Positions 1,496 to 12,355 of a DNA stretch of 64,000 bases are shown here, one piece after another. Source of the stretch: Candidatus Omnitrophota bacterium (lineage in GTDB: Bacteria; Omnitrophota; Gorgyraeia; Zapsychrales; JANLHA01); NCBI GenBank assembly GCA_029560465.1, contig JAKQKX010000082.1, forward strand, positions 4,947 through 68,946, in the 5' to 3' direction. The notes beneath the pieces are model-generated. The model saw nothing but the letters and a program-made list of their open reading frames with translations, searched no databases and was not told where the DNA came from. A program made the translations under genes and the position numbers. Positions within the stretch are counted from its first letter, which is position 1. Each line of letters begins with the position of its first letter.

Positions 1496-2023
1496 CTACG
1501 GAAGCGCAAAAGCGCGGCACTTAATGCGAATCTCTTTAAGCTCCTTCAGCACTGCCGTCAAGTCAAACGATTCACCGCGAAACGTCAAAGTCTGCGTCAA
1601 AGGATCATACGCCCTATGATGATTGCTAGGAAAATTTCTCTTCATTGACTTGAATGAATCTATTGCCAAGTCGCTGTAGACAGCCGAAGATTTCCCCTTA
1701 AACCATTTTTCTATTCGATCGTCATAGTGTTCGAAATGATTGCGGAATTTGCGATCAGAAAGAAGATTCCCTTCGTCGACTTTAAGCAACTCCCGCAATC
1801 TTTTGCCTCGTACCGCGTATTTCTTTTCCTGTGGCCATAAAATCTTCGATACGTTTCCAGTAGCCACGAGAATCGATTGAATTGAACTCCAAACTTCAAT
1901 CTGATCGAAATTTTTTGTGATCGCCGATAAACGTTTAGCCGCCAATTCTGCAATCTTTGACTGCAACACAATCTCGCCTATAAAAACCATCTCAGCAAGG
2001 GCTTTTTGTGGCCTATTATCCAT
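1496..2023 (-). CDS. Hypothetical protein with a possible HEPN-like Rx4H motif
   Basis: 175-aa ORF that is co-oriented and tightly spaced with its neighbours. The sequence LSDRKFRNHFEHYDDR contains R-x4-H, matching the HEPN nuclease Rx4-6H signature. The composition (K/E/L-rich) looks helical. No other family was recognised. Confidence 0.45.
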   Translation of the reverse strand: MDNRPQKALAEMVFIGEIVLQSKIAELAAKRLSAITKNFDQIEVWSSIQSILVATGNVSKILWPQEKKYAVRGKRLRELLKVDEGNLLSDRKFRNHFEHYDDRIEKWFKGKSSAVYSDLAIDSFKSMKRNFPSNHHRAYDPLTQTLTFRGESFDLTAVLKELKEIRIKCRAFALP

Positions 2024-2070
2024 CGTTCACTTCCTCAATTCATCTAAACTTCCGGCTACCGGATGGCCTT

Positions 2071-2760
2071 TCATAACTGATTCGGCAATCCGCCGTATAA
2101 GTCCTTTGATAATTCCGATTGCCAATATTCTTTGGTATCAATATCCATAATCGTCAGTTTGCCCGACCACCCAGCGCCGGTGTCCAGATCCCACACGTTG
2201 CAAACATGAATCGGCTCAAGCGTTCTATAAATCTCCGTTGTCGTATGGCCGATAAAAATATCATCGTATTTTGTGATCTGCGCTTCACGTCTATAATTAG
2301 CCGCTTCCCATGCGTCTTTTAATAAATCCCTATCCCACACAAGCACCTGAGCACTATTTTGTTCCAATGGCAAATCCGGCACAAAACCGGCATGAACGAA
2401 AAGCTTATTCCTGACTTCCAACCAAAGATGTCCACTTTTTAGGAAGTCAATATGCGTCTGCGGCATAGGCCCACCGTTATACGACGCCATCGTCCGGTCA
2501 CCACCTTGACTTGTCCATATCTCCGGCTTATCGCCTCGCAAGGCCCAGTCGAGCGCCCACATGTCATGATTGCCAATGATCAGATCGCAGTGCTTGATCT
2601 TTAATAACTCGTCGATACACTGCCTGACTTCCGGATACCCATCGCAAACATCACCCATCACGATCAGGCGGTCTTTCTTATAATCGAACTTTGAGCGCTC
2701 AAAGCACTGCATCATCGCCTTGTAGGCGCCGTGGATGTCCCCGATGGCGAAGGTTCTCAT
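2071..2760 (-). CDS. Calcineurin-like metallophosphoesterase (Ser/Thr phosphatase / ApaH-like)
   Basis: The motifs GDIHG, GDVCDG and GNHD occur in the canonical order of the PPP-family metallophosphatase signature. The stop overlaps the start of the upstream gene by 4 nt. Confidence 0.75.
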   Translation of the reverse strand: MRTFAIGDIHGAYKAMMQCFERSKFDYKKDRLIVMGDVCDGYPEVRQCIDELLKIKHCDLIIGNHDMWALDWALRGDKPEIWTSQGGDRTMASYNGGPMPQTHIDFLKSGHLWLEVRNKLFVHAGFVPDLPLEQNSAQVLVWDRDLLKDAWEAANYRREAQITKYDDIFIGHTTTEIYRTLEPIHVCNVWDLDTGAGWSGKLTIMDIDTKEYWQSELSKDLYGGLPNQL

Positions 2761-3548
2761 TCCTCAATCCTTCGCCGAATATCTCCAAACTTCTCAAACG
2801 CGTCTTCTCTCACATTCGCGACATAAGCGTCCGGGCCGTTTTCCTGCTCAACAAATAAAGGCCCCTTTGAGTCAACACTGGCAAAATACTCTTTGAGATT
2901 CTCTTTGACCTGTTTGCCTTCTTTCAGTTTTTTGATAAGGCCGACCACATCGTCGCAAAGCTGTGCCTTTGTCGGGCTGAATCTGATCATATAATAAACG
3001 TAATAAAGGTCTTTCCTGAGCTTAGCTTTGTTTTCCCGATCGACAAACGTCAGCAGTTTATGGAAAACAAACATCGATTCTGTCGGTATCTGGATACTCT
3101 TGCCGTTCATTTTCACCGGCATGACAGAGCCAAGTAACAAACTGAAATGCTGGATTTCATTGATCTTGATCTCTTGGCCAACGATCTTATTGATGACTTT
3201 CCGGGAAACCTTGGGGTCGGTGATAAATTCAACTTCCGCTTTGGCATCACCGGAGGCATCTTTTACAATAGGCACAAAGGGAATCAGTCTGTCCATTGAA
3301 GCGTGGCGCTCTCCGTATCCCAAACGTTGCACCCGGGAAGCAACAGTATCCTTCCCTTTAAAGTCATGATCACCAACGCCGAAATCGATGTCTCCAGTAG
3401 TCACTGCCATATTGGGGACGTCTTTCCACATGTGTTTGGCATAGATGTACGGTACCCAACCGCCAACCAGAACAAGATACGGCAAAAAATCAGCCAGATC
3501 GTCTATAACTTTGATGAGGAGCTTTTCTCCCGGGAATTCTTTAGGCAA
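2757..3548 (-). CDS. Pol-beta-fold nucleotidyltransferase (AbiEii-like, putative toxin component)
   Basis: 263 aa. The sequence VLVGGWVPY (hGG) followed by TGDIDFGV ([DE]h[DE]h) matches the minimal NTase active-site pattern. It overlaps the upstream wHTH gene by 8 nt. Confidence 0.55.
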   Translation of the reverse strand: MPKEFPGEKLLIKVIDDLADFLPYLVLVGGWVPYIYAKHMWKDVPNMAVTTGDIDFGVGDHDFKGKDTVASRVQRLGYGERHASMDRLIPFVPIVKDASGDAKAEVEFITDPKVSRKVINKIVGQEIKINEIQHFSLLLGSVMPVKMNGKSIQIPTESMFVFHKLLTFVDRENKAKLRKDLYYVYYMIRFSPTKAQLCDDVVGLIKKLKEGKQVKENLKEYFASVDSKGPLFVEQENGPDAYVANVREDAFEKFGDIRRRIEE

Positions 3549-4236
3549 TTGATTTTCCTTCCTCTTTTAATGTCTTGAATAAATACTCGGCATGATCACG
3601 GCCTCTCTGCGGAAAATGGTAGAGGTCCAAATAAAGCTGGAGATTCGAAACAACATTGTATCCTTTGATCACTTGGGTATTGAAAAATGTGGCGCTTTTA
3701 TAATACGGGTTTATTAAATAAAAATTACCGCCCGTCTTTAATTCCTTCAGATCAAGCACCTGCCGCAAGTCCAATGAAGCGCTTTTGAAATTCTTTACCG
3801 GCAGGTAACAATATATTGTCTGCGTGTTCACGTAGCTGGTAATGAGATTGGCCCCGGTATGAAGCGCCAGGGCGTATTGATTGGGCTCTTTCTTCCCTGC
3901 AAAATATTCCTTTAGCCGGGGAAGAATATCCTCTCGGGTTGAGTAATAAAGATGGGCCTCGTTAAGCTCAAACTTATAGACTTTGAGCCACTCCTCAAGA
4001 AGCTCTTCTTTGTTTTGCAATATGCTATGCGCGAGCCTGCCAGAACGGACTCCTCCGACAAACCCCTTGGCGCGAAGTTCTGATAGCACTTTTGCCGCGC
4101 GCGCGCGGCCCACGCCAAATTCTTTCTCGAAATCCCTAGCGACCCATTTCCTATCGGGTTGAGATAGCATGGCGCGAATGATTATGTTCGCCTTATCTCC
4201 TAAAAGTATTTTCATCGTAGTAACTCCTTCGTACAA
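3541..4236 (-). CDS. AbiEi-like winged-helix regulator (putative antitoxin/regulator of the NTase operon)
   Basis: 231 aa. The N-terminal segment ARDFEKEFGVGRARAAKVLSELRAKGFV looks wHTH-like. It is the first gene of the operon and sits downstream of the repeat-rich promoter. Confidence 0.5.
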   Translation of the reverse strand: MYEGVTTMKILLGDKANIIIRAMLSQPDRKWVARDFEKEFGVGRARAAKVLSELRAKGFVGGVRSGRLAHSILQNKEELLEEWLKVYKFELNEAHLYYSTREDILPRLKEYFAGKKEPNQYALALHTGANLITSYVNTQTIYCYLPVKNFKSASLDLRQVLDLKELKTGGNFYLINPYYKSATFFNTQVIKGYNVVSNLQLYLDLYHFPQRGRDHAEYLFKTLKEEGKSIA

Positions 4237-4272
4237 TCCATTACTTGACTATCTGTTAAGCCAAGGCATATT

Positions 4273-4332
4273 AAATGTCCACTTTTCCTAAATGTCCACT
4301 ATTTAGTGGACATTTCCAATTAGTGGACATTT
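4273..4332. promoter_or_regulatory. Four-copy 11-bp operator array (AAATGTCCACT x2 direct, then AGTGGACATTT x2 inverted) upstream of the wHTH gene
   Basis: The four copies are exact, at 4273-4283, 4290-4300, 4305-4315 and 4322-4332. They lie 37-97 bp upstream of the start codon at 4236. Confidence 0.6.
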
Positions 4333-4562
4333 TACCATGATGCACCTGAGAGTCAAGAGAAATATCTGATGCAGGTCAGTAAAATTATGCCCATCCATGT
4401 CCATCAAAATGCCCTTTTTGAGCCCTCCCGGACGCCTGCAGGATACCCCTAAAATCGCCTGTTTTCCGACGCTGGGAGCTTATTTTGGCCGAGGTGACCA
4501 CTTATGCCCAAACCCCAAAAGTGATGGACATGGACATCGATTTTTTTGACCACTATCACTGG

Positions 4563-4672
4563 CTCCTTGCGCCTCGCCCGACCTGCTCCCCCACCCGGCT
4601 TCCAAGGACCCATGGCGCCTGCCAGCATAAAAAATCCCTATGGCCACGCCTCTCCGGCTCTACCATAGGGAC
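4563..4672. repeat. Conserved ~105-bp element, copy A. It carries a hairpin plus T-run that would act as a terminator on the minus strand.
   Basis: I aligned 4563-4672 to 11452-11554 by eye. Shared blocks are CTCCTGCGCCTCGCCCGACC, CCGGCTTCCAAGGACCC and AGCATAAAAAATCCCTATG...CCATAGGGA. The hairpin TCCCTATGG/CCATAGGGA is followed by T6 on the minus strand. Confidence 0.6.
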
Positions 4673-4947
4673 TTGAGTTGCTAAAGCGAGCTGATCCTTA
4701 CAACGCCCCGATTACCGCCTCCGCCAAGCGCGTCATCGCATTACTATAAATCTGCCACTGGCCAGCCGAAGGTGCGCAAAAGGATACGTAGCTTCTTCGG
4801 ACTTTTTTCTGTATTTTCTGCTCTGTTTCCGCTTGTTTTATCCATTTTAGCCCTTCGTCATAGCAAAGCTTCCACGGCCGGCTAGGCCCTTACCTTTAAA
4901 ATTTATGAGTGAAATACGGAATGACCAAAATATACAACTAGTTAAAT

Positions 4948-5832
4948 CTATTGTTTTATTCTGCCTAATTTTTGCATAATTAAATCCCCAAGTTGGTTCG
5001 GGCTCTTAAATTGTAAATCCACATAACAAATTGTCGGACGTAATCCGGGGAGTTCAGTCTTGTCAAAGCGCGCGGGCAAGATATACTCCCCTTTTTCTTC
5101 TAATTCTAAGGCTTTGGCTAAGGCACTTCCTCGCTCATGGCTCGGCCAAATCTTTTCCTTATAATGCTTGGAAATAAACATAACGCAATATCGAGCGTCG
5201 CCTCTGAATACTTTGTCTAAATGCTCAACCAAATCTTTTCCCCAGAGAGTGGCTTCTTCATACTTATCATAGAAGAAACGAATATTTTTTTTCTTTAAAT
5301 AGGCGGCAACTTTCTCGACATAATCCCTATCTTCTCCTGCGAATGAAAGCGCCACTTCATAGGCATTTTCACCCGGCATATTTTCTTTGTTCTCGCCGAT
5401 TCTTTTTGCCTTGTATATGCCTCTGCCAGATATCTGGGAATCTATATCAAGCCTATATCCATCCGGCTCCAAGTATTTGTTTAGCTCATCAACAACTTGT
5501 TTTACCTCACTCGCATCACGCTCTCGCAAGACAACAGGATGGACTACCTGTTCAATAAATTTTAAGAAGATAGTTTCGGGACATTCAAATAGTTTTAAAT
5601 AATTGGATAAGAGAAAATCTTCATCCCAGTCACTATTATTAATCATGTGTTGCCAGATGTCGCCTTCTGCATTTTCAAATCTGCCATCGGTGGAAGGCAT
5701 TGAGGACAAATCCCATACCCTTTTCAGGAAACCGACAAGGTCTAATTTACCGTAAAAAGGTTTACCTCTTACAAGTAGATAATCAATAATATCTCGTCGG
5801 GTTAATTCTGTAATAATCATTTCAAAAATCAT
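4948..5832 (-). CDS. TIR-domain protein with an unrecognised ~150-aa N-terminal domain
   Basis: The C-terminal half reads EVALSFAGEDRDYVEKVAAYLKKKNIRFFYD...CVMFISKHYKEKIWPSHE. This is the bacterial TIR pattern (SFAGEDR, an FxSxxY box, and a conserved Glu). Confidence 0.7.
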   Translation of the reverse strand: MIFEMIITELTRRDIIDYLLVRGKPFYGKLDLVGFLKRVWDLSSMPSTDGRFENAEGDIWQHMINNSDWDEDFLLSNYLKLFECPETIFLKFIEQVVHPVVLRERDASEVKQVVDELNKYLEPDGYRLDIDSQISGRGIYKAKRIGENKENMPGENAYEVALSFAGEDRDYVEKVAAYLKKKNIRFFYDKYEEATLWGKDLVEHLDKVFRGDARYCVMFISKHYKEKIWPSHERGSALAKALELEEKGEYILPARFDKTELPGLRPTICYVDLQFKSPNQLGDLIMQKLGRIKQ

Positions 5833-5897
5833 TTCTTTAGGCTTTTGTTATTTCAGCCCAATCCTTGCAAATAAGTACCGTCTGATTCAAAACTGTT

Positions 5898-6794
5898 TCA
5901 GTATCTTTTTGCTGTTAGTCTGGCGGGTAGCCATATTTTGTTCAGTAAACCCAGTGTTTTATCTATATCAAAACTTTTCTGCTCATCAATTGTCAGGACA
6001 GGGAACAGCTCATCAGAAAGCCGGGATTTCATTTCCTTTATTTCTTTGTCTTTTCTTCCAAGATTCACCCGGTAATTCTTTAAATCAGTTGAAAAGCCGT
6101 CCTCTTCAAGCTTTCGCTTGAAAAGTGATAGCAATTCCTTGCTTTTAAAATCAAACCCGCTTTTAAGTAAATAGCCCAAATCATAAAAATCCCGCGATGC
6201 AATAGTCTGCCTTGTTGATGCCGCCCGGAGCTTCTCAGCGACAAGCTCATTAATCGAAAGGCACGTTATCTTGCCGGCATCAAACAATTCTTCTTTTGTG
6301 AATGGGTGCAAGAATTTATGGTTGATTTTCCTGGTTGTAAAACTAAGCATAGGATTAAACCGAAGCCCGATTTCAAGCTTGATGGATTCTTTTTTGCCAA
6401 GAACCACTGAATCATAGTCAAGGTAATAGATGTATTGGGTGGATTCGTTATGTCCTGCGCTATCCAGATTCCCGACGCTCATTGCCAGTTTCTGTAATAG
6501 CGGCTGTAATGATTTCTTTATCGGTTCGATTGCTTTTTTTCGAATTGCGCGCGTTGCCTCATCTACAGGCAGTTTTAATGTAAAGTCCAAGTCCTCGCTT
6601 AAGCGGTAATATGAATAATAAACCTTGCTTAGTGCAGTGCCGCCCTTGAATACGAGGTCTGGGCTAAGCTCATTTATTTTTGAAAGAACTATGGTTATGT
6701 AATAATCTTTTTCAAGAAGCCGCAAGGGAAACCCTGTCTGGGCTGATGTCCTTTCAAGAATTTTTAAAAATTCAGATTTATTCTCATGAAGCAT
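5898..6794 (-). CDS. AbiEii/AbiGii-family nucleotidyltransferase toxin (DUF1814)
   Basis: FKGGTALSKVY followed by SEDLDF is the DUF1814 NTase signature. The gene overlaps the upstream AbiEi gene. Confidence 0.75.
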   Translation of the reverse strand: MLHENKSEFLKILERTSAQTGFPLRLLEKDYYITIVLSKINELSPDLVFKGGTALSKVYYSYYRLSEDLDFTLKLPVDEATRAIRKKAIEPIKKSLQPLLQKLAMSVGNLDSAGHNESTQYIYYLDYDSVVLGKKESIKLEIGLRFNPMLSFTTRKINHKFLHPFTKEELFDAGKITCLSINELVAEKLRAASTRQTIASRDFYDLGYLLKSGFDFKSKELLSLFKRKLEEDGFSTDLKNYRVNLGRKDKEIKEMKSRLSDELFPVLTIDEQKSFDIDKTLGLLNKIWLPARLTAKRY

Positions 6795-7593
6795 TTTCTA
6801 TGACCATCCATTTTTTGTTTATACTGCCTTTTCTTGACTGCGAAGGATAAATGTTAATCAGGGATGTCTTTTTGACTGCTTTTAATAGCGGGCTTAACAT
6901 GCCATCACTGACCCTGCATTCTTCAAGGGCAATGCCGATTCTTTTAATGAGTGCTGTATTGGAAGATTTAACCGCGTATTTAATAAGCCTTGCAATATCT
7001 GTCTTTTTTCCCATGACATCGGATTTCAATATCTCAAACGCTTTCTTTAATCCTCCGACTGGCTCGGAAAAATAAAACAGGTCAATCAGTGTTTTTTCCC
7101 TGTCGCTGACAATAACATCAGTGTCTTTTATTTTTATCGTTTCAAAACCATAAAGGCGTTTTGGGGCAATCTTAATCATCTTGAAGCGCATGTTGCTGAC
7201 AACCTTTTCTTTTTGAGTGGAAGTGTTCAGGATATACATTGTCTGGAAAAGCTGGTCAGTAAAGCCGTAGTAGTTGTACATTGTTGAATAGCCGATATAA
7301 TAATTTTTCTTTGGGAAAAAAAGCGGCGGGATTAGGAATTCATTGATGTTGCTCCCGGCAGGGCCTGCTTCCAAAGGTGAATACAAATAGACGCCATTCT
7401 TGATTTTTTTAAGAATGCCTTTTTTGGAAAGACGGTAAAGCGTCTTTGCCCGTATTGACTTGAGATAGCCAAATAACTTGTCAAACTCTTCCTGAGTGAT
7501 TACCGTCACTTTCTCATAGGAGAGCCTTGATATGACTTCCTGCTCTCTCGGATTCAAGTATTGCATTGTATTGTTCTTTATCATTTTGCCCAT
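6784..7593 (-). CDS. AbiEi-family antitoxin / transcriptional regulator
   Basis: 269 aa with an N-terminal wHTH. It is the first gene of the pair and overlaps the AbiEii start by 11 nt. Confidence 0.65.
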   Translation of the reverse strand: MGKMIKNNTMQYLNPREQEVISRLSYEKVTVITQEEFDKLFGYLKSIRAKTLYRLSKKGILKKIKNGVYLYSPLEAGPAGSNINEFLIPPLFFPKKNYYIGYSTMYNYYGFTDQLFQTMYILNTSTQKEKVVSNMRFKMIKIAPKRLYGFETIKIKDTDVIVSDREKTLIDLFYFSEPVGGLKKAFEILKSDVMGKKTDIARLIKYAVKSSNTALIKRIGIALEECRVSDGMLSPLLKAVKKTSLINIYPSQSRKGSINKKWMVIENAS

Positions 7594-7838
7594 AAATGGA
7601 AATGCTAGGAATTTACATACAATATAAATCTTATGGTTTTATTGCTGTTTGTCAATATATTTCAGCATGTTATGCGATAACTCCCCATCTCAGCAATCCG
7701 CTTCAAGACCCCTTCCATAATACGCCTGTAGCGCGCGCATCAATACCCTTTTCGTCACAACTTTTTTTCTGAATAAATTCCGTAAATTCCGGGGACACAC
7801 AACTAAACCTTATTTAGTGTGGGTGAGTAAATTATTCT

Positions 7839-10537: not shown

Positions 10538-10738
10538 TCATGTTTGGGCAAGCAAAACCAATAGGATTTCAAACTCAGATGGGCTCAGATAACCAAGCGT
10601 TGAATGATCCCGTTTACGGTTCTCCCAAAACTTCTCGGATTCATCTTTATCTCCTGTGTGGTCCATTTCATTGCTAAAGGGGCACAATACGTTTATTTTT
10701 GCCTGAGCCTCATCAACCTTACTTAAAATCTTTTTCAT
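10538..10738 (-). pseudogene. IS3-family transposase C-terminal remnant
   Basis: FWENRKRDHSTLGYLSPSEFE matches the extreme C-terminus of IS3 OrfB (rve) proteins (…YN..RRHS.LGYLSP.EFE). The upstream catalytic domain is absent. Confidence 0.6.
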
Positions 10739-10776
10739 ATGACCGCCACCTTACTGGCTTAAGAGTCAAGAAATTG

Positions 10777-11376
10777 CTACGAATTCAATTGTTTAAATAT
10801 TTCACCTATCCAAGCCGGGGCATAACGAATATCGTTTATAAGCTGTTTTTTATCCTCGGCTGATAACTTTTTTTTAAGCGAATTAATAATCTTCTCGTCA
10901 ATATTTCTTTGTTTCATGTAACGGAAAGCCTGAATAACCAAGCCGCTCACACGCCCGGCAGTCGCCATATTCTTTGGTGATGTCTTCTTAAACTTAATTT
11001 GCCAGTTGCCAACTTGAACCGCCCGGGTAGAGCCATTTGTTAATAAAACAATCTTTGCCGGTACTTGATCAGACAACCCCAGCAAGTTGGCCGCGTATGC
11101 TCCTGAAGGCTGAATCTTAAGATTATCTTTTTCAGCAAGCGCGGCGGTAACACGCTCAACGCTCGGCGGCGTTTCTTCAAAATCCGGATGTTTTCGTGGA
11201 TAATCATAAAGTCCACGCGCTAATCTGCGGATATCTCCAGATCGAACCAGTCGGCTCAACGCCTGATCTACAGCGGCACGATTGCCAAGATCAAGAAAAT
11301 GGCTTGGGGCAAATACCCATCCCTTTTTCTTGCCGATAATCCGGCGAAGGATTTTACTCTCAATGGATTCTGTCAT
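10777..11376 (-). CDS. AbiEi_4 / DUF6088-type antitoxin-like protein (orphan)
   Basis: 199 aa with WVFAPSHFLDLG..AVDQALSRLVRSGDIRRLARGLYDYP at the N-terminus, which is the DUF6088 pattern. No cognate NTase lies downstream; an IS remnant sits there instead. Confidence 0.55.
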   Translation of the reverse strand: MTESIESKILRRIIGKKKGWVFAPSHFLDLGNRAAVDQALSRLVRSGDIRRLARGLYDYPRKHPDFEETPPSVERVTAALAEKDNLKIQPSGAYAANLLGLSDQVPAKIVLLTNGSTRAVQVGNWQIKFKKTSPKNMATAGRVSGLVIQAFRYMKQRNIDEKIINSLKKKLSAEDKKQLINDIRYAPAWIGEIFKQLNS

Positions 11377-11563: not shown

Positions 11564-12355
11564 TTACAAAAGGTTTTGTGACTTAAAGATATTCTCTATG
11601 ATCGTCCTGGCAGTCTTGCCCGAGGGATTCTCGCCTCCGGCAATATTGCAGGCAAAAACGTAGGTCGTGCCGTCATGCTCCAAGAAGCCCACAAACCAGC
11701 CCAAATTCCATTTCCCGTCAGGCCCTGTGCCGGAGCCGGTTTTGCCGTAAAGCGTTCCTTTGGTGGTCTTCTCTACCCGCATGATATCGCGTAGTAGCAC
11801 AATATTCTTTTCAGAAAACGGAAGCTTGCCATCCAAAAGCTTGTTTAAAAGAGCGACCTGTTCATCCGCGCTGATCTTGATAGATGTGGTTTCAGGGCGC
11901 GGAAGCCAGAAGATATCGATCCCGGCAGAAATATCCTGTGAGCCATAGCTGATCTTTCCAATATACTCCTTCATCCGGGCTTCACCGATCTGCTGTGCTA
12001 AGAGCTGGTATGCGGGGACGGCCGACACCCTAAACGCTTCGCGGAGCGTTAAATCCTGATTCCATCCCTCTATGTCACGCTTCACCCCATCCCATTTATA
12101 CCACGATTCATCAGCGCCCTTTATGAGCCCAAGCTCAAGCCCGATGAGCGTATTGTAGATCTTGAATGTCGAGCACGGCGAAAGACGCCGGGCGCTAAGC
12201 TTCGGATCCGCATTGACAACCTCGCCGTTTGCCCGGTTATAAATCACCAGAGCCGCGTCATACCCCTGCAAAAAAGCTTGATCGATTTCCTGAGCAAAGG
12301 AAACCGGCCCCATAAACAAAAAACAGATGCAAAATACGGTTTTATTTATACGCAT
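11564..12355 (-). CDS. Class D (OXA-type) beta-lactamase
   Basis: An N-terminal signal peptide is followed by the STFK active-site motif, an SAV (SxV) motif, YGKTGSG (KTG), and W..G (WFVGF). Confidence 0.8.
   Translation of the reverse strand: MRINKTVFCICFLFMGPVSFAQEIDQAFLQGYDAALVIYNRANGEVVNADPKLSARRLSPCSTFKIYNTLIGLELGLIKGADESWYKWDGVKRDIEGWNQDLTLREAFRVSAVPAYQLLAQQIGEARMKEYIGKISYGSQDISAGIDIFWLPRPETTSIKISADEQVALLNKLLDGKLPFSEKNIVLLRDIMRVEKTTKGTLYGKTGSGTGPDGKWNLGWFVGFLEHDGTTYVFACNIAGGENPSGKTARTIIENIFKSQNLL

Follow-up and report, generated by a model that had tools for sequence, protein, structure and literature searches.

The gene analyzed here, part of a DNA stretch of 64,000 nucleotides that we refer to as the window, probably encodes an abortive-infection type of protein that unites sensor and effector in one self-contained polypeptide, in which an N-terminal AbiJ-NTD3 domain is followed by a TIR effector predicted to act as an NADase (Table 1). 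The sequence-only reading had offered two possibilities, a three-gene system with the neighbouring AbiE pair or a separate single-gene TIR defence, and our data point to the second. The two-domain unit is conserved across many bacterial and archaeal phyla without a conserved neighbour, the catalytic Glu and the cyclisation Trp are kept, and defence genes are found near its homologues. For annotation, the locus can now be described as a candidate defence gene of the AbiJ-NTD3–TIR type that stands alone, with an independent AbiE pair next to it.

Table 1. Positions in the window of the AbiJ-NTD3–TIR gene, its domains and predicted key residues, and the adjoining AbiE genes.
Feature	Coordinates	Strand	Remark
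AbiJ-NTD3–TIR ORF	4948..5832	minus	294 aa from first ATG; ORF list
AbiJ_NTD3 domain (PF18860), aa 7-157	5362..5814	minus	Pfam
TIR domain (Pfam TIR_2, PF13676), aa 160-275	5008..5355	minus	presumed NAD+-cleaving effector
Trp229 codon TGG	5146..5148	minus	aligns with AbTir alpha-C W204
Glu233 codon GAG, predicted catalytic glutamate	5134..5136	minus	read from sequence and alignment
Intergenic spacer, abiEii stop to first TIR-ORF ATG	5833..5897	minus	65 bp
abiEii	5898..6794	minus	Pfam E=2e-30; PADLOC AbiEii E=7e-39
abiEi	6784..7593	minus	PADLOC AbiEi E=1.5e-48

The open reading frame is intact, and the motifs first quoted from it are real: in its translation, SFAGEDR occupies aa 163-169 and FISKHY...SHE contains E233. 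Translation probably begins at the ATG at 5820, which gives a protein of 290 aa, since nearly all homologues in the family alignment begin at the position of Met5, as does the 290-aa gene call of an identical metagenome protein (P0001). The product matches 2405 database proteins at E<=1e-3. The best 120 of these 2405 matches show 56-100% identity, all carry PF18860 and PF13676, and they cover 84-99% of the query (97-99% in nearly all cases), with a two-domain unit of about 285 aa. Leaving the identical copy aside, the closest database relatives of the window protein are 64-70% identical to it. On sequence grounds, the ORF is far beyond what chance would produce.

A decayed or inactive remnant lacking any present function would be consistent with three features of the locus: neither ATG is preceded by a recognisable ribosome-binding site, the protein has two small insertions relative to its homologues (RE at 103-104 and LE near 244-245), and a 700-bp non-coding stretch lies downstream of the gene. 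However, the full-length ORF has kept all residues that are invariant in the family alignment (SFAGE-R, FYD, LWGK, W229xxxE233 and EYxLPxRFD), the catalytic Glu included, and an identical copy is present in an independent assembly; we therefore consider decay scarcely credible. Six-frame translation of the downstream gap (4237-4947) and tblastn with all homologue neighbours revealed no decayed partner gene there.

The assignment of the C-terminal half to the TIR domains was borne out by Pfam, which matched TIR_2 with E=4.3e-18 (66.4 bits vs. a cutoff of 28). Foldseek comparison with the PDB returned BtpA/TcpB, PdTIR, BtTir and AbTir at E ~1e-5 and TM(target) ~0.7, the TIR part of the full-length AF2 model being of moderate confidence (pLDDT 55-89), and a profile search of PDB sequences also recovered BtTir (9e-8) and AbTir (2e-7). 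Glu233 aligns with the Glu of the AbTir '...WTNYEL' and BtTir '...WTEYEL' segments and with the BtpA glutamate, a position equivalent to the catalytic glutamates AbTir E208 and SARM1 E642. It is invariant both in the family (38 of 38 members) and in relatives sharing the TIR only (45 of 45). Four residues ahead of it, Trp229 is nearly invariant in the family alignment. In AbTir, E208 is catalytic, the E208A mutant being inactive, W204 is required for ADP-ribose cyclisation, and activity depends on TIR self-association (AbTir mutagenesis paper). From its sequence, the window TIR can thus reasonably be taken for an NADase or a signal generator. AbTir, BtTir, BtpA/TcpB and PdTIR resemble it in their SxxxED beta-A motif, alpha-C Trp and catalytic Glu, but their sequence identity to it is only about 20%. 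They are virulence or standalone NADases with coiled-coil N-terminal regions, whereas the window TIR is preceded by NTD3.

The N-terminal segment of some 150 aa had been described as matching nothing. This did not hold: Pfam identified it as AbiJ_NTD3 (PF18860) with E=9.8e-53 (178.4 bits vs. a cutoff of 32.5, over profile positions 2-150 of 167), a domain that is functionally uncharacterised yet classified. It is made up of six helices and then a C-terminal beta-hairpin, and is presumed to be a sensor or regulatory module. No solved structural relative of NTD3 came out of the Foldseek comparison of the full-length model with the PDB, where essentially TIR matches alone were returned, and viral structures gave no match with E<0.1. 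The definition of AbiJ-NTD3, an alpha+beta domain of roughly 140 aa, goes back to Anantharaman, Makarova, Burroughs, Koonin and Aravind (2013, Biol Direct 8:15; PMC3710099), who listed TIR fusions for AbiJ-NTD2, -NTD3 and -NTD5 and proposed that these N-terminal domains bind viral targets and/or restrain the C-terminal toxin in the manner of an antitoxin. The architecture of their AbiJ-NTD3–TIR fusions, PF18860 plus PF13676, is identical to that of the window protein, which is set apart by its two small insertions and by nothing in its domain order. By its domains, the window gene is a member of this known, computationally described NTD3–TIR family, which has thousands of bacterial and archaeal database members, and in itself the gene adds no new principle.

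What NTD3 is joined to elsewhere is informative about the role of the TIR. Among the 150 nearest cluster representatives, its partners are TIR_2 (31), Abi_C HEPN (24), protein kinase (6), CAP12-type TIR (3), SEFIR (2), AAA_21 ABC ATPase (2) and, once each, SIR2_2 and a DpnII-MboI REase; a Shedu SduA–NTD3 fusion was also found, on plasmids. This range of fusions (HEPN, kinase, SIR2, nucleases) fits the sensor/antitoxin hypothesis of Anantharaman et al. 2013 and, because NTD3 is otherwise fused to direct toxins, suggests that the C-terminal domain is the effector in our protein as well. AbiJ/Abi_C proteins (HEPN RNases) similarly combine an N-terminal module and a C-terminal toxin in one polypeptide, and 510 of 2,815 Abi_C proteins carry AbiJ-NTD3, while the Abi_C protein SadR of S. 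aureus has an Sdh5-type N-terminal domain, not NTD3 (PMC13590631). The window protein differs from them in its effector, a TIR whose predicted target is NAD+ rather than RNA, and it has no Pfam match to Abi_C at E<=0.01.

We propose the following scheme. In the uninfected cell, NTD3 would hold the C-terminal TIR inactive by autoinhibition, and would respond when an infection cue appears. This cue is more likely to be a conserved ligand, a nucleic-acid feature or a host state than a fast-evolving phage protein, because a set of polar residues, comprising S47, D49, R51, D58, H62, D68 and H98, is kept in every NTD3 regardless of the effector fused to it. Upon activation, the TIR domains would be expected to associate into an oligomer, the TIR active site being built from two TIR domains. 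The assembled TIR would then cleave NAD+ through Glu233 and would probably yield a cyclic ADP-ribose isomer as a second product, since Trp229 is present. The resulting loss of NAD+ would be toxic, so that phage release would be forestalled by arrest or death of the infected cell; the anti-phage phenotype that we predict would follow from this last step.

A direct sensor of phage proteins would not usually be as strongly conserved as NTD3 is. We tentatively suggest, as an idea to be held with some doubt, that NTD3 does not bind variable phage proteins at all but is a universal small-molecule, nucleic-acid or metal-dependent sensor, or a small enzyme, through which one conserved infection signal gates many suicide effectors. 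If true, it would constitute a CARF/SAVED-like 'common input module' for these effectors. NTD3 is common to AbiJ/HEPN, kinase, SIR2 and Shedu-type effectors; the cue that it senses would therefore explain the activation of the whole set of one-protein defences. In the literature, we found survey mentions only, and no experimental work, for the NTD3–TIR family or for any NTD3 domain.

The distribution of the TIR gene is patchy and spans bacteria and archaea, with homologues in Zixibacteria, Acidobacteriota, Bacillota, Planctomycetia, Methanoperedens, Methanocellales, Methanolobus and Micrarchaeota, and its neighbourhoods are variable. When 106 flanking genes from 27 genomes were scanned against Pfam, no conserved partner gene emerged, the commonest family being HNH_2, in 4. 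Two candidate partners were discarded: the HNH_2 protein (262 aa) is downstream in only 2-3 of the 27 genomes, and an Mrr- or DUF1780-type nuclease is downstream in two other genomes, which is too rare; both are absent here. Defence genes occur in these flanks, where Shedu SduA, Hachiman/DISARM/BREX-type helicases, HNH and Mrr nucleases, HepT/MNT, the S subunit of a type I R-M system and a DUF4145 HEPN protein were seen; their enrichment was judged qualitatively. No full-length match to well-studied plasmid or phage homologues was found.

Several homologues lie beside housekeeping genes, such as the one for methylmalonyl-CoA mutase in Zixibacteria, which could mean that the protein is not mainly anti-phage. 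It might be a fused toxin–antitoxin-like module for addiction or stress, or a TIR with another substrate, acting for instance in the decapping of NAD-capped RNA, with NTD3 serving for regulation or targeting. According to PMC10937652, TIR proteins such as AbTir are able to strip nicotinamide from NAD-capped RNA, a very conserved NTD3 would fit a house-keeping ligand, and an antitoxin-like function of the N-terminal domain was also raised by Anantharaman et al. (PMC3710099). On the other hand, the patchy distribution in bacteria and archaea and the shifting gene neighbourhoods speak against such a reading, all other NTD3 partners are typical effectors of conflict systems, and the gene lies here in a cluster of AbiE-like modules. 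We consider a principally non-phage role unlikely.

The retention of Trp229, the counterpart of the AbTir cyclisation residue, also raises the question of whether the product of the TIR, rather than the loss of NAD+, is what matters. In a Thoeris-like arrangement, the TIR, triggered by NTD3, would make a cADPR-isomer messenger for an effector encoded elsewhere, and its own depletion of NAD+ would not be the killing step. AbTir and BtTir, the nearest solved relatives, do make 2'cADPR, and there is a weak match to a ThsB model (E=0.0018). This match is nevertheless far below those to single-protein TIR models (PDC-S66, 8e-16; retron-TIR, 4e-12), no ThsA-like gene (SIR2-SLOG or Macro) was seen among the neighbours within the window, and a conserved partner is absent across the 27 related genomes. 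In addition, the other NTD3 fusions are to direct toxins (HEPN, SIR2, nucleases). Taken with these observations, a messenger-producing TIR seems distinctly improbable, and we favour the single-protein sensor–effector.

Thoeris (ThsA plus ThsB) resembles the window gene as a TIR-based anti-phage immunity in which the TIR may make cADPR isomers, but the window protein combines the sensor and the TIR, its probable effector, in one chain; the match to the ThsB1 model is marginal, and the related loci, like the window, have no ThsA-like neighbour. As regards CBASS and Pycsar, the protein contains no SAVED, STING or cNMP-binding domain and has no CAP12-PCTIR_TIR match, and no cyclase gene was detected among its neighbours in the window. 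Nor does it have the reverse transcriptase domain of retron/RT-TIR systems: the PADLOC model RT-TIR_XII covers only aa 147-254, and NCBIfam NF042941, for which the TIR part alone aligns, scores 45.5 bits vs. a cutoff of 600. Two further PADLOC models each match one half of the protein. PDC-S66, a single-gene model, aligns to the TIR half (aa 145-253, E=8e-16) over its positions 136-239 of 282, leaving its N-terminal 135 positions unaligned, and is thus not matched at full length. PDC-M01A aligns to the NTD3 half (aa 17-143, E=7e-15), but spans 639 positions, differs in its C-terminus and does not account for the whole window protein. For both PDC-S66 and PDC-M01A, the literature yielded labels in genome surveys only and no functional work.

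Upstream of the TIR gene, and co-oriented with it, are abiEi and abiEii, a type IV toxin–antitoxin/abortive-infection pair whose two genes overlap by 11 nt. The TIR gene had been placed 65 bp below this pair, which is correct for the first ATG; measured from the probable start at 5820, the gap is 77 bp. If the three genes formed one system, the TIR protein might, for example, be controlled by AbiEi or nucleotidylated by AbiEii, or it might serve the operon as a second toxin. Consistent with such a system, the genes are co-oriented across a gap of 65-77 bp that has no consensus terminator or promoter, all three have a similarly low GC content (0.39-0.40 vs. 0.45 for the window), and the arrangement is repeated in a 100%-identical metagenome contig (L090). 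This contig, however, comes from the same organism and is hence not independent evidence.

In related loci, the association was not seen. AbiEi/AbiEii adjoined full-length TIR homologues in 0 of 27 genomes: no AbiE family was found by Pfam scan among the 106 genes flanking the homologues in these genomes, and when the ORFs of 80 related genome loci were all searched by phmmer with the two AbiE proteins of the window, no AbiE was detected near full-length homologues. The four closest metagenome homologues (64-69% identity) likewise lack AbiE beside them. In the reverse direction, not one of the 44 loci with AbiEii relatives (57-76% identity) carried the TIR gene, even though AbiEi was still attached in about 38 of them; at least 500 bp of downstream sequence was available in about 34 of the 44. 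The TIR gene and AbiE are thus independent in both directions, and the lack of co-occurrence either way leads us to reject the three-gene system, which is very improbable. AbiE resembles the TIR gene as a physical neighbour with the same orientation and a similar GC content, but the two are not found together elsewhere, and the TIR protein has no AbiE domain. The closest homologue, P0002, is preceded by a 298-aa protein equal in length to AbiEii, but the two turned out to be unrelated (BLASTP E=0.2, no Pfam match).

The adjacency to abiE appears to be coincidental, a case of defence-gene clustering in a low-GC block of about 2.65 kb, and provides at most for co-transcription with abiE in this genome alone. 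Promoter and terminator scanning of the 65-bp spacer detected neither a consensus terminator nor a sigma-70-like promoter, and read-through from the abiE promoter into the TIR gene is possible for this reason. No Rfam families or tRNAs were detected across the whole window. The best promoter-like site on the minus strand is upstream of abiEi, at 7655..7628 (10/12 matches). Such a spacer, together with the shared low GC content, leaves room for local co-expression with AbiE.

The gene downstream of the AbiE pair is an intact open reading frame whose product joins an N-terminal AbiJ_NTD3 module (NTD3) to a C-terminal TIR_2 domain (see table). The sequence-only reading had assigned the C-terminal half to the bacterial TIR domains, and the Pfam match agrees; the motifs it quoted were found at residues 163-169 (SFAGEDR) and in the stretch FISKHY…W229-P-S-H-E233. 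The N-terminal half, said to match nothing, belongs instead to a named family. The gene is indeed co-oriented with abiEi and abiEii, with a spacer of 65 bp between abiEii and its first ATG. However, nearly all homologues start at the position of Met5, and P0001, an identical metagenome protein, was likewise called from there (290 aa), so that the ATG at 5820 is probably the real start, giving a spacer of 77 bp.

Features of the NTD3–TIR gene and its surroundings in the window
Feature	Position	Strand	Evidence or remark
NTD3–TIR ORF	4948..5832	-	intact, 294 aa
AbiJ_NTD3 (PF18860)	aa 7-157		Pfam E=9.8e-53, 178 bits vs cutoff 32.5
TIR_2 (PF13676)	aa 160-275		Pfam E=4.3e-18
AbiEii	5898..6794	-	PADLOC E=7e-39; gene overlaps abiEi by 11 nt
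AbiEi	6784..7593	-	PADLOC E=1.5e-48
175-aa protein	1496..2023	-	after metallophosphatase; without family match
ApaH/PrpA-like metallophosphatase	2071..2760	-	after NTP_transf_8 gene
NTP_transf_8 nucleotidyltransferase	2757..3548	-	overlaps metallophosphatase gene by 4 nt
AbiEi_2-like regulator	3541..4236	-	overlaps NTP_transf_8 gene by 8 nt
Repeated motifs	4260..4360		upstream of AbiEi_2-like gene
Promoter-like site	4356..4329		TTGACT-16-TAAAAT, extended TG; upstream of AbiEi_2-like gene
Region between TIR gene and next operon	4237..4947		~700 bp; GC 0.475
66-aa ORF and DUF6088/AbiEi_4 gene, region	10538..11376	-	
DUF6088/AbiEi_4 antitoxin-like gene	10777..11376	-	PADLOC AbiEi E=5e-73
263-aa ORF	11564..12355	-	Transpeptidase PF00905, E=4e-31

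A search of 5.8 billion proteins (E<=1e-3) gave 2405 matches. The best 120 of these (56-100% identity, typically 283-290 aa) all contain both PF18860 and PF13676, and named sources of homologues include Zixibacteria, Sedimentisphaerales, Methanoperedens, Methanocellales and Micrarchaeota. Scanning GTDB, with one genome per species, yielded 587 relatives. About 30 are full-length (Acidobacteriota, Bacillota, Eremiobacterota, Planctomycetia, Syntrophaceae, Ignavibacteria, Methanolobus and others), the remainder matching the TIR half only (46-64% identity). In a 38-member alignment, the invariant residues were D17, W40, S47, R51, D58, H62, D68, W69, H98 and P99 in the N-terminal domain, and S163, F164, A165, G166, E167, R169, F187, Y188, D189, L196, W197, G198, K199, R214, C216, F219, S221, E233 and the motif E249-Y-x-L-P-x-R-F-D257 in the TIR domain. 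The window protein keeps every one of them and is thus not a decayed copy; that the gene is dead is extremely improbable.

Three homologues, P0003 (396 aa), P0108 (422 aa) and P0109 (421 aa), have an additional N-terminal extension of about 110-140 aa ahead of NTD3, without annotated domain. The same TIR subtype (46-64% identical, SFAGEDR…WxxHE…EYILPxRFD) also occurs at the N- or C-terminus of other proteins, at the related genome loci L032–L080. Their other halves have no Pfam match, except for single cases with Response_reg, PilZ or DUF3117, and constitute a reservoir of uncharacterised partner domains for this subtype.

The sequence-only reading had left a choice between a three-gene system with AbiE and a separate single-gene TIR defence, and our data favour the latter. 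Searching the related genome loci by phmmer with the window AbiEi and AbiEii revealed neither near the full-length TIR homologues. Among 106 genes flanking 27 of these homologues (two per side), a Pfam scan detected no AbiE family and no conserved neighbour, the commonest being HNH_2 (4 genes). Nor did AbiE adjoin the closest metagenome homologues (64-69% identity). The Methanoperedens homologue adjoins a DUF2254 protein and a 246-aa protein without Pfam match, and genes for McrB-like AAA_5 and RRXRR/HNH proteins lie further upstream; in Zixibacteria the neighbour is methylmalonyl-CoA mutase, and one contig has a HepT/MNT pair further upstream. Another has two neighbours without Pfam match and a type I restriction-modification specificity subunit further upstream, and yet another adjoins a DUF4145 HEPN protein. 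The arrangement recurs only in L090, a metagenome contig of 3.2 kb with 100% identity to the window. Starting from AbiE instead, we examined 44 metagenome loci with AbiEii relatives (57-76% identity), about 38 of which have AbiEi adjacent; the NTD3–TIR gene was detected in none of the 44, although downstream sequence extends for 500 bp or more at about 34. This lack of co-occurrence from either side indicates that AbiEi–AbiEii is a self-contained pair and NTD3–TIR a self-contained gene, the two-domain unit being kept in the best 120 homologues. A three-gene system is very improbable. It is possible that the genes are co-transcribed and were jointly acquired in this genome: no consensus terminator or promoter was found in the abiEii–TIR spacer, and GC is 0.39-0.40 in all three genes, lower than in the window overall (0.452) and the flanks (0.475/0.508).

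The TIR half resembles solved bacterial NADases. An AlphaFold model of the window protein (mean pLDDT 77.8) matched essentially TIR domains alone in a Foldseek search of the PDB, the top matches being BtpA/TcpB, PdTIR, BtTir and AbTir (E ~1e-5, target TM ~0.7). The family profile matched the PDB sequences of BtTir (9e-8), AbTir (2e-7) and BtpA (3e-7), with the family motif W-t-n-H-E-R aligned to W-T-N-Y-E-L of AbTir. [quoted passage not shown] By this alignment, the counterparts of W204 and E208 in the window protein are W229 and E233; E233 is invariant in 38/38 family members and in 45/45 relatives having this TIR subtype only. The sequence is thus fully consistent with a TIR that actively cleaves NAD+ and may also cyclise ADP-ribose. 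A non-defence role or another substrate, as in NAD-RNA decapping, is unlikely. Thoeris-like signalling to an unlinked effector is quite unlikely, as a ThsA-like partner was found neither among the neighbours in the window nor at the related loci.

The N-terminal module was defined in 2013 as an alpha+beta domain, some 140 aa long, on AbiJ-type HEPN proteins, by authors who explicitly described TIR fusions to AbiJ-NTD2, -NTD3 and -NTD5 and proposed that these domains bind viral components and/or are in-cis antitoxins of the C-terminal toxin (Anantharaman et al., PMC3710099). Since this architecture was published then and is in Pfam, the window protein belongs to an already known, computationally defined kind, and it agrees with the AbiJ_NTD3–TIR fusion family in every testable respect. 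It differs from AbiJ in lacking Abi_C, from Thoeris in lacking ThsA, from CBASS/Pycsar effectors in lacking a nucleotide sensor and a cyclase, and from retron-TIR in lacking an RT. The PADLOC candidate-defence models PDC-S66 and PDC-M01A match the TIR half alone and the NTD3 half alone, respectively; we found no studies of either candidate in the literature.

NTD3 is reused widely. A 2026 survey placed it on 510/2,815 Abi_C proteins (PMC13590631). Our filter-free HMMER search with residues 1-150 against 1.84 billion cluster representatives (E<=1e-3) matched 1328 clusters. In the best 150 of these, Pfam detected NTD3 in all and, besides it, TIR_2 (31), Abi_C/HEPN (24), TIR (12), protein kinase (6), CAP12-type TIR (3), SEFIR (2), AAA_21/ABC ATPase (2), DUF559 (2), SIR2_2 (1), DpnII-MboI (1) and DUF4062 (1). 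Plasmid-borne NTD3 is also joined to Shedu SduA nucleases, Abi_C proteins and kinases. Predicted alone by AlphaFold (pLDDT 91.5, pTM 0.86), the module consists of six helices with a beta-hairpin at the C-terminus. Its polar residues R12, D17, S47, D49, R51, D58, H62, D68, H98, N118 and D124 are conserved to at least 85% in 17 TIR-fused and 80 non-TIR-fused representatives alike, suggesting that NTD3 probably has the same molecular role whatever the effector. This conservation argues against a rapidly evolving binder of phage proteins and for action through a ligand or interaction that is itself conserved. We propose that the single polypeptide would be both sensor and effector, with NTD3 keeping the TIR domain inactive until an infection cue acts at its conserved pocket, so that the protein is released or oligomerises. 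TIR domains in pairs would then cleave NAD+ via E233, probably also producing a cADPR isomer since W229 is present, and NAD+ depletion would abort the infection. The interest of the case lies in NTD3 rather than in the window gene: the module is widespread, strongly conserved, without structural relative and would gate many effectors, making its ligand and mechanism the central question.

The neighbours of NTD3–TIR genes, judged qualitatively, support a defence-island lifestyle. They include PADLOC matches to Shedu SduA (3), HNH endonuclease effectors (4) and Hachiman, DISARM and BREX helicases (2 each), and the nuclease genes HNH_2, Mrr_cat and DUF1780 lie directly 3' of the gene in a few genomes. 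HNH_2 homologues of 262-264 aa (related genome loci L002:10878-11666, L008:7985-8773 and L019:12369-13163) lie directly downstream in one Bacillota and one Syntrophaceae genome and two genes downstream in one Terriglobia genome. They also match the PADLOC 'SAVED_HNH'/endonuclease-effector and PDC-M68A models, and the combination may represent a two-gene variant specific to some lineages.

Within its first 12 kb, the window also contains RadC, an orphan DUF6088/AbiEi_4 gene and a second AbiE-like pair, AbiEi_2-like + NTP_transf_8. The latter could be part of a four-gene operon (1496..4236, minus strand), upstream of which repeated copies of the motifs ATGTCCACT / AGTGGACAT and the promoter-like site probably form an autoregulatory operator. 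No AbiEii-type toxin adjoins the DUF6088/AbiEi_4 gene; downstream is only a 66-aa ORF ending ...RKRDHSTLGYLSPSEFE, which resembles the C-terminal end of an IS3-type transposase. The toxin partner may therefore have been lost. The region separating the TIR gene from the next operon, higher in GC than the TIR/AbiE block, has no ORF above 63 aa, no Rfam match and no detectable coding remnant. Across the 64 kb, neither tRNA genes nor Rfam matches at gathering threshold were found, and nearly all ORFs of 150 aa or more are on the minus strand. One of 263 aa, with a signal-peptide-like N-terminus and S-T-F-K and K-T-G motifs, appears to be a homologue of class D (OXA-type) beta-lactamases.
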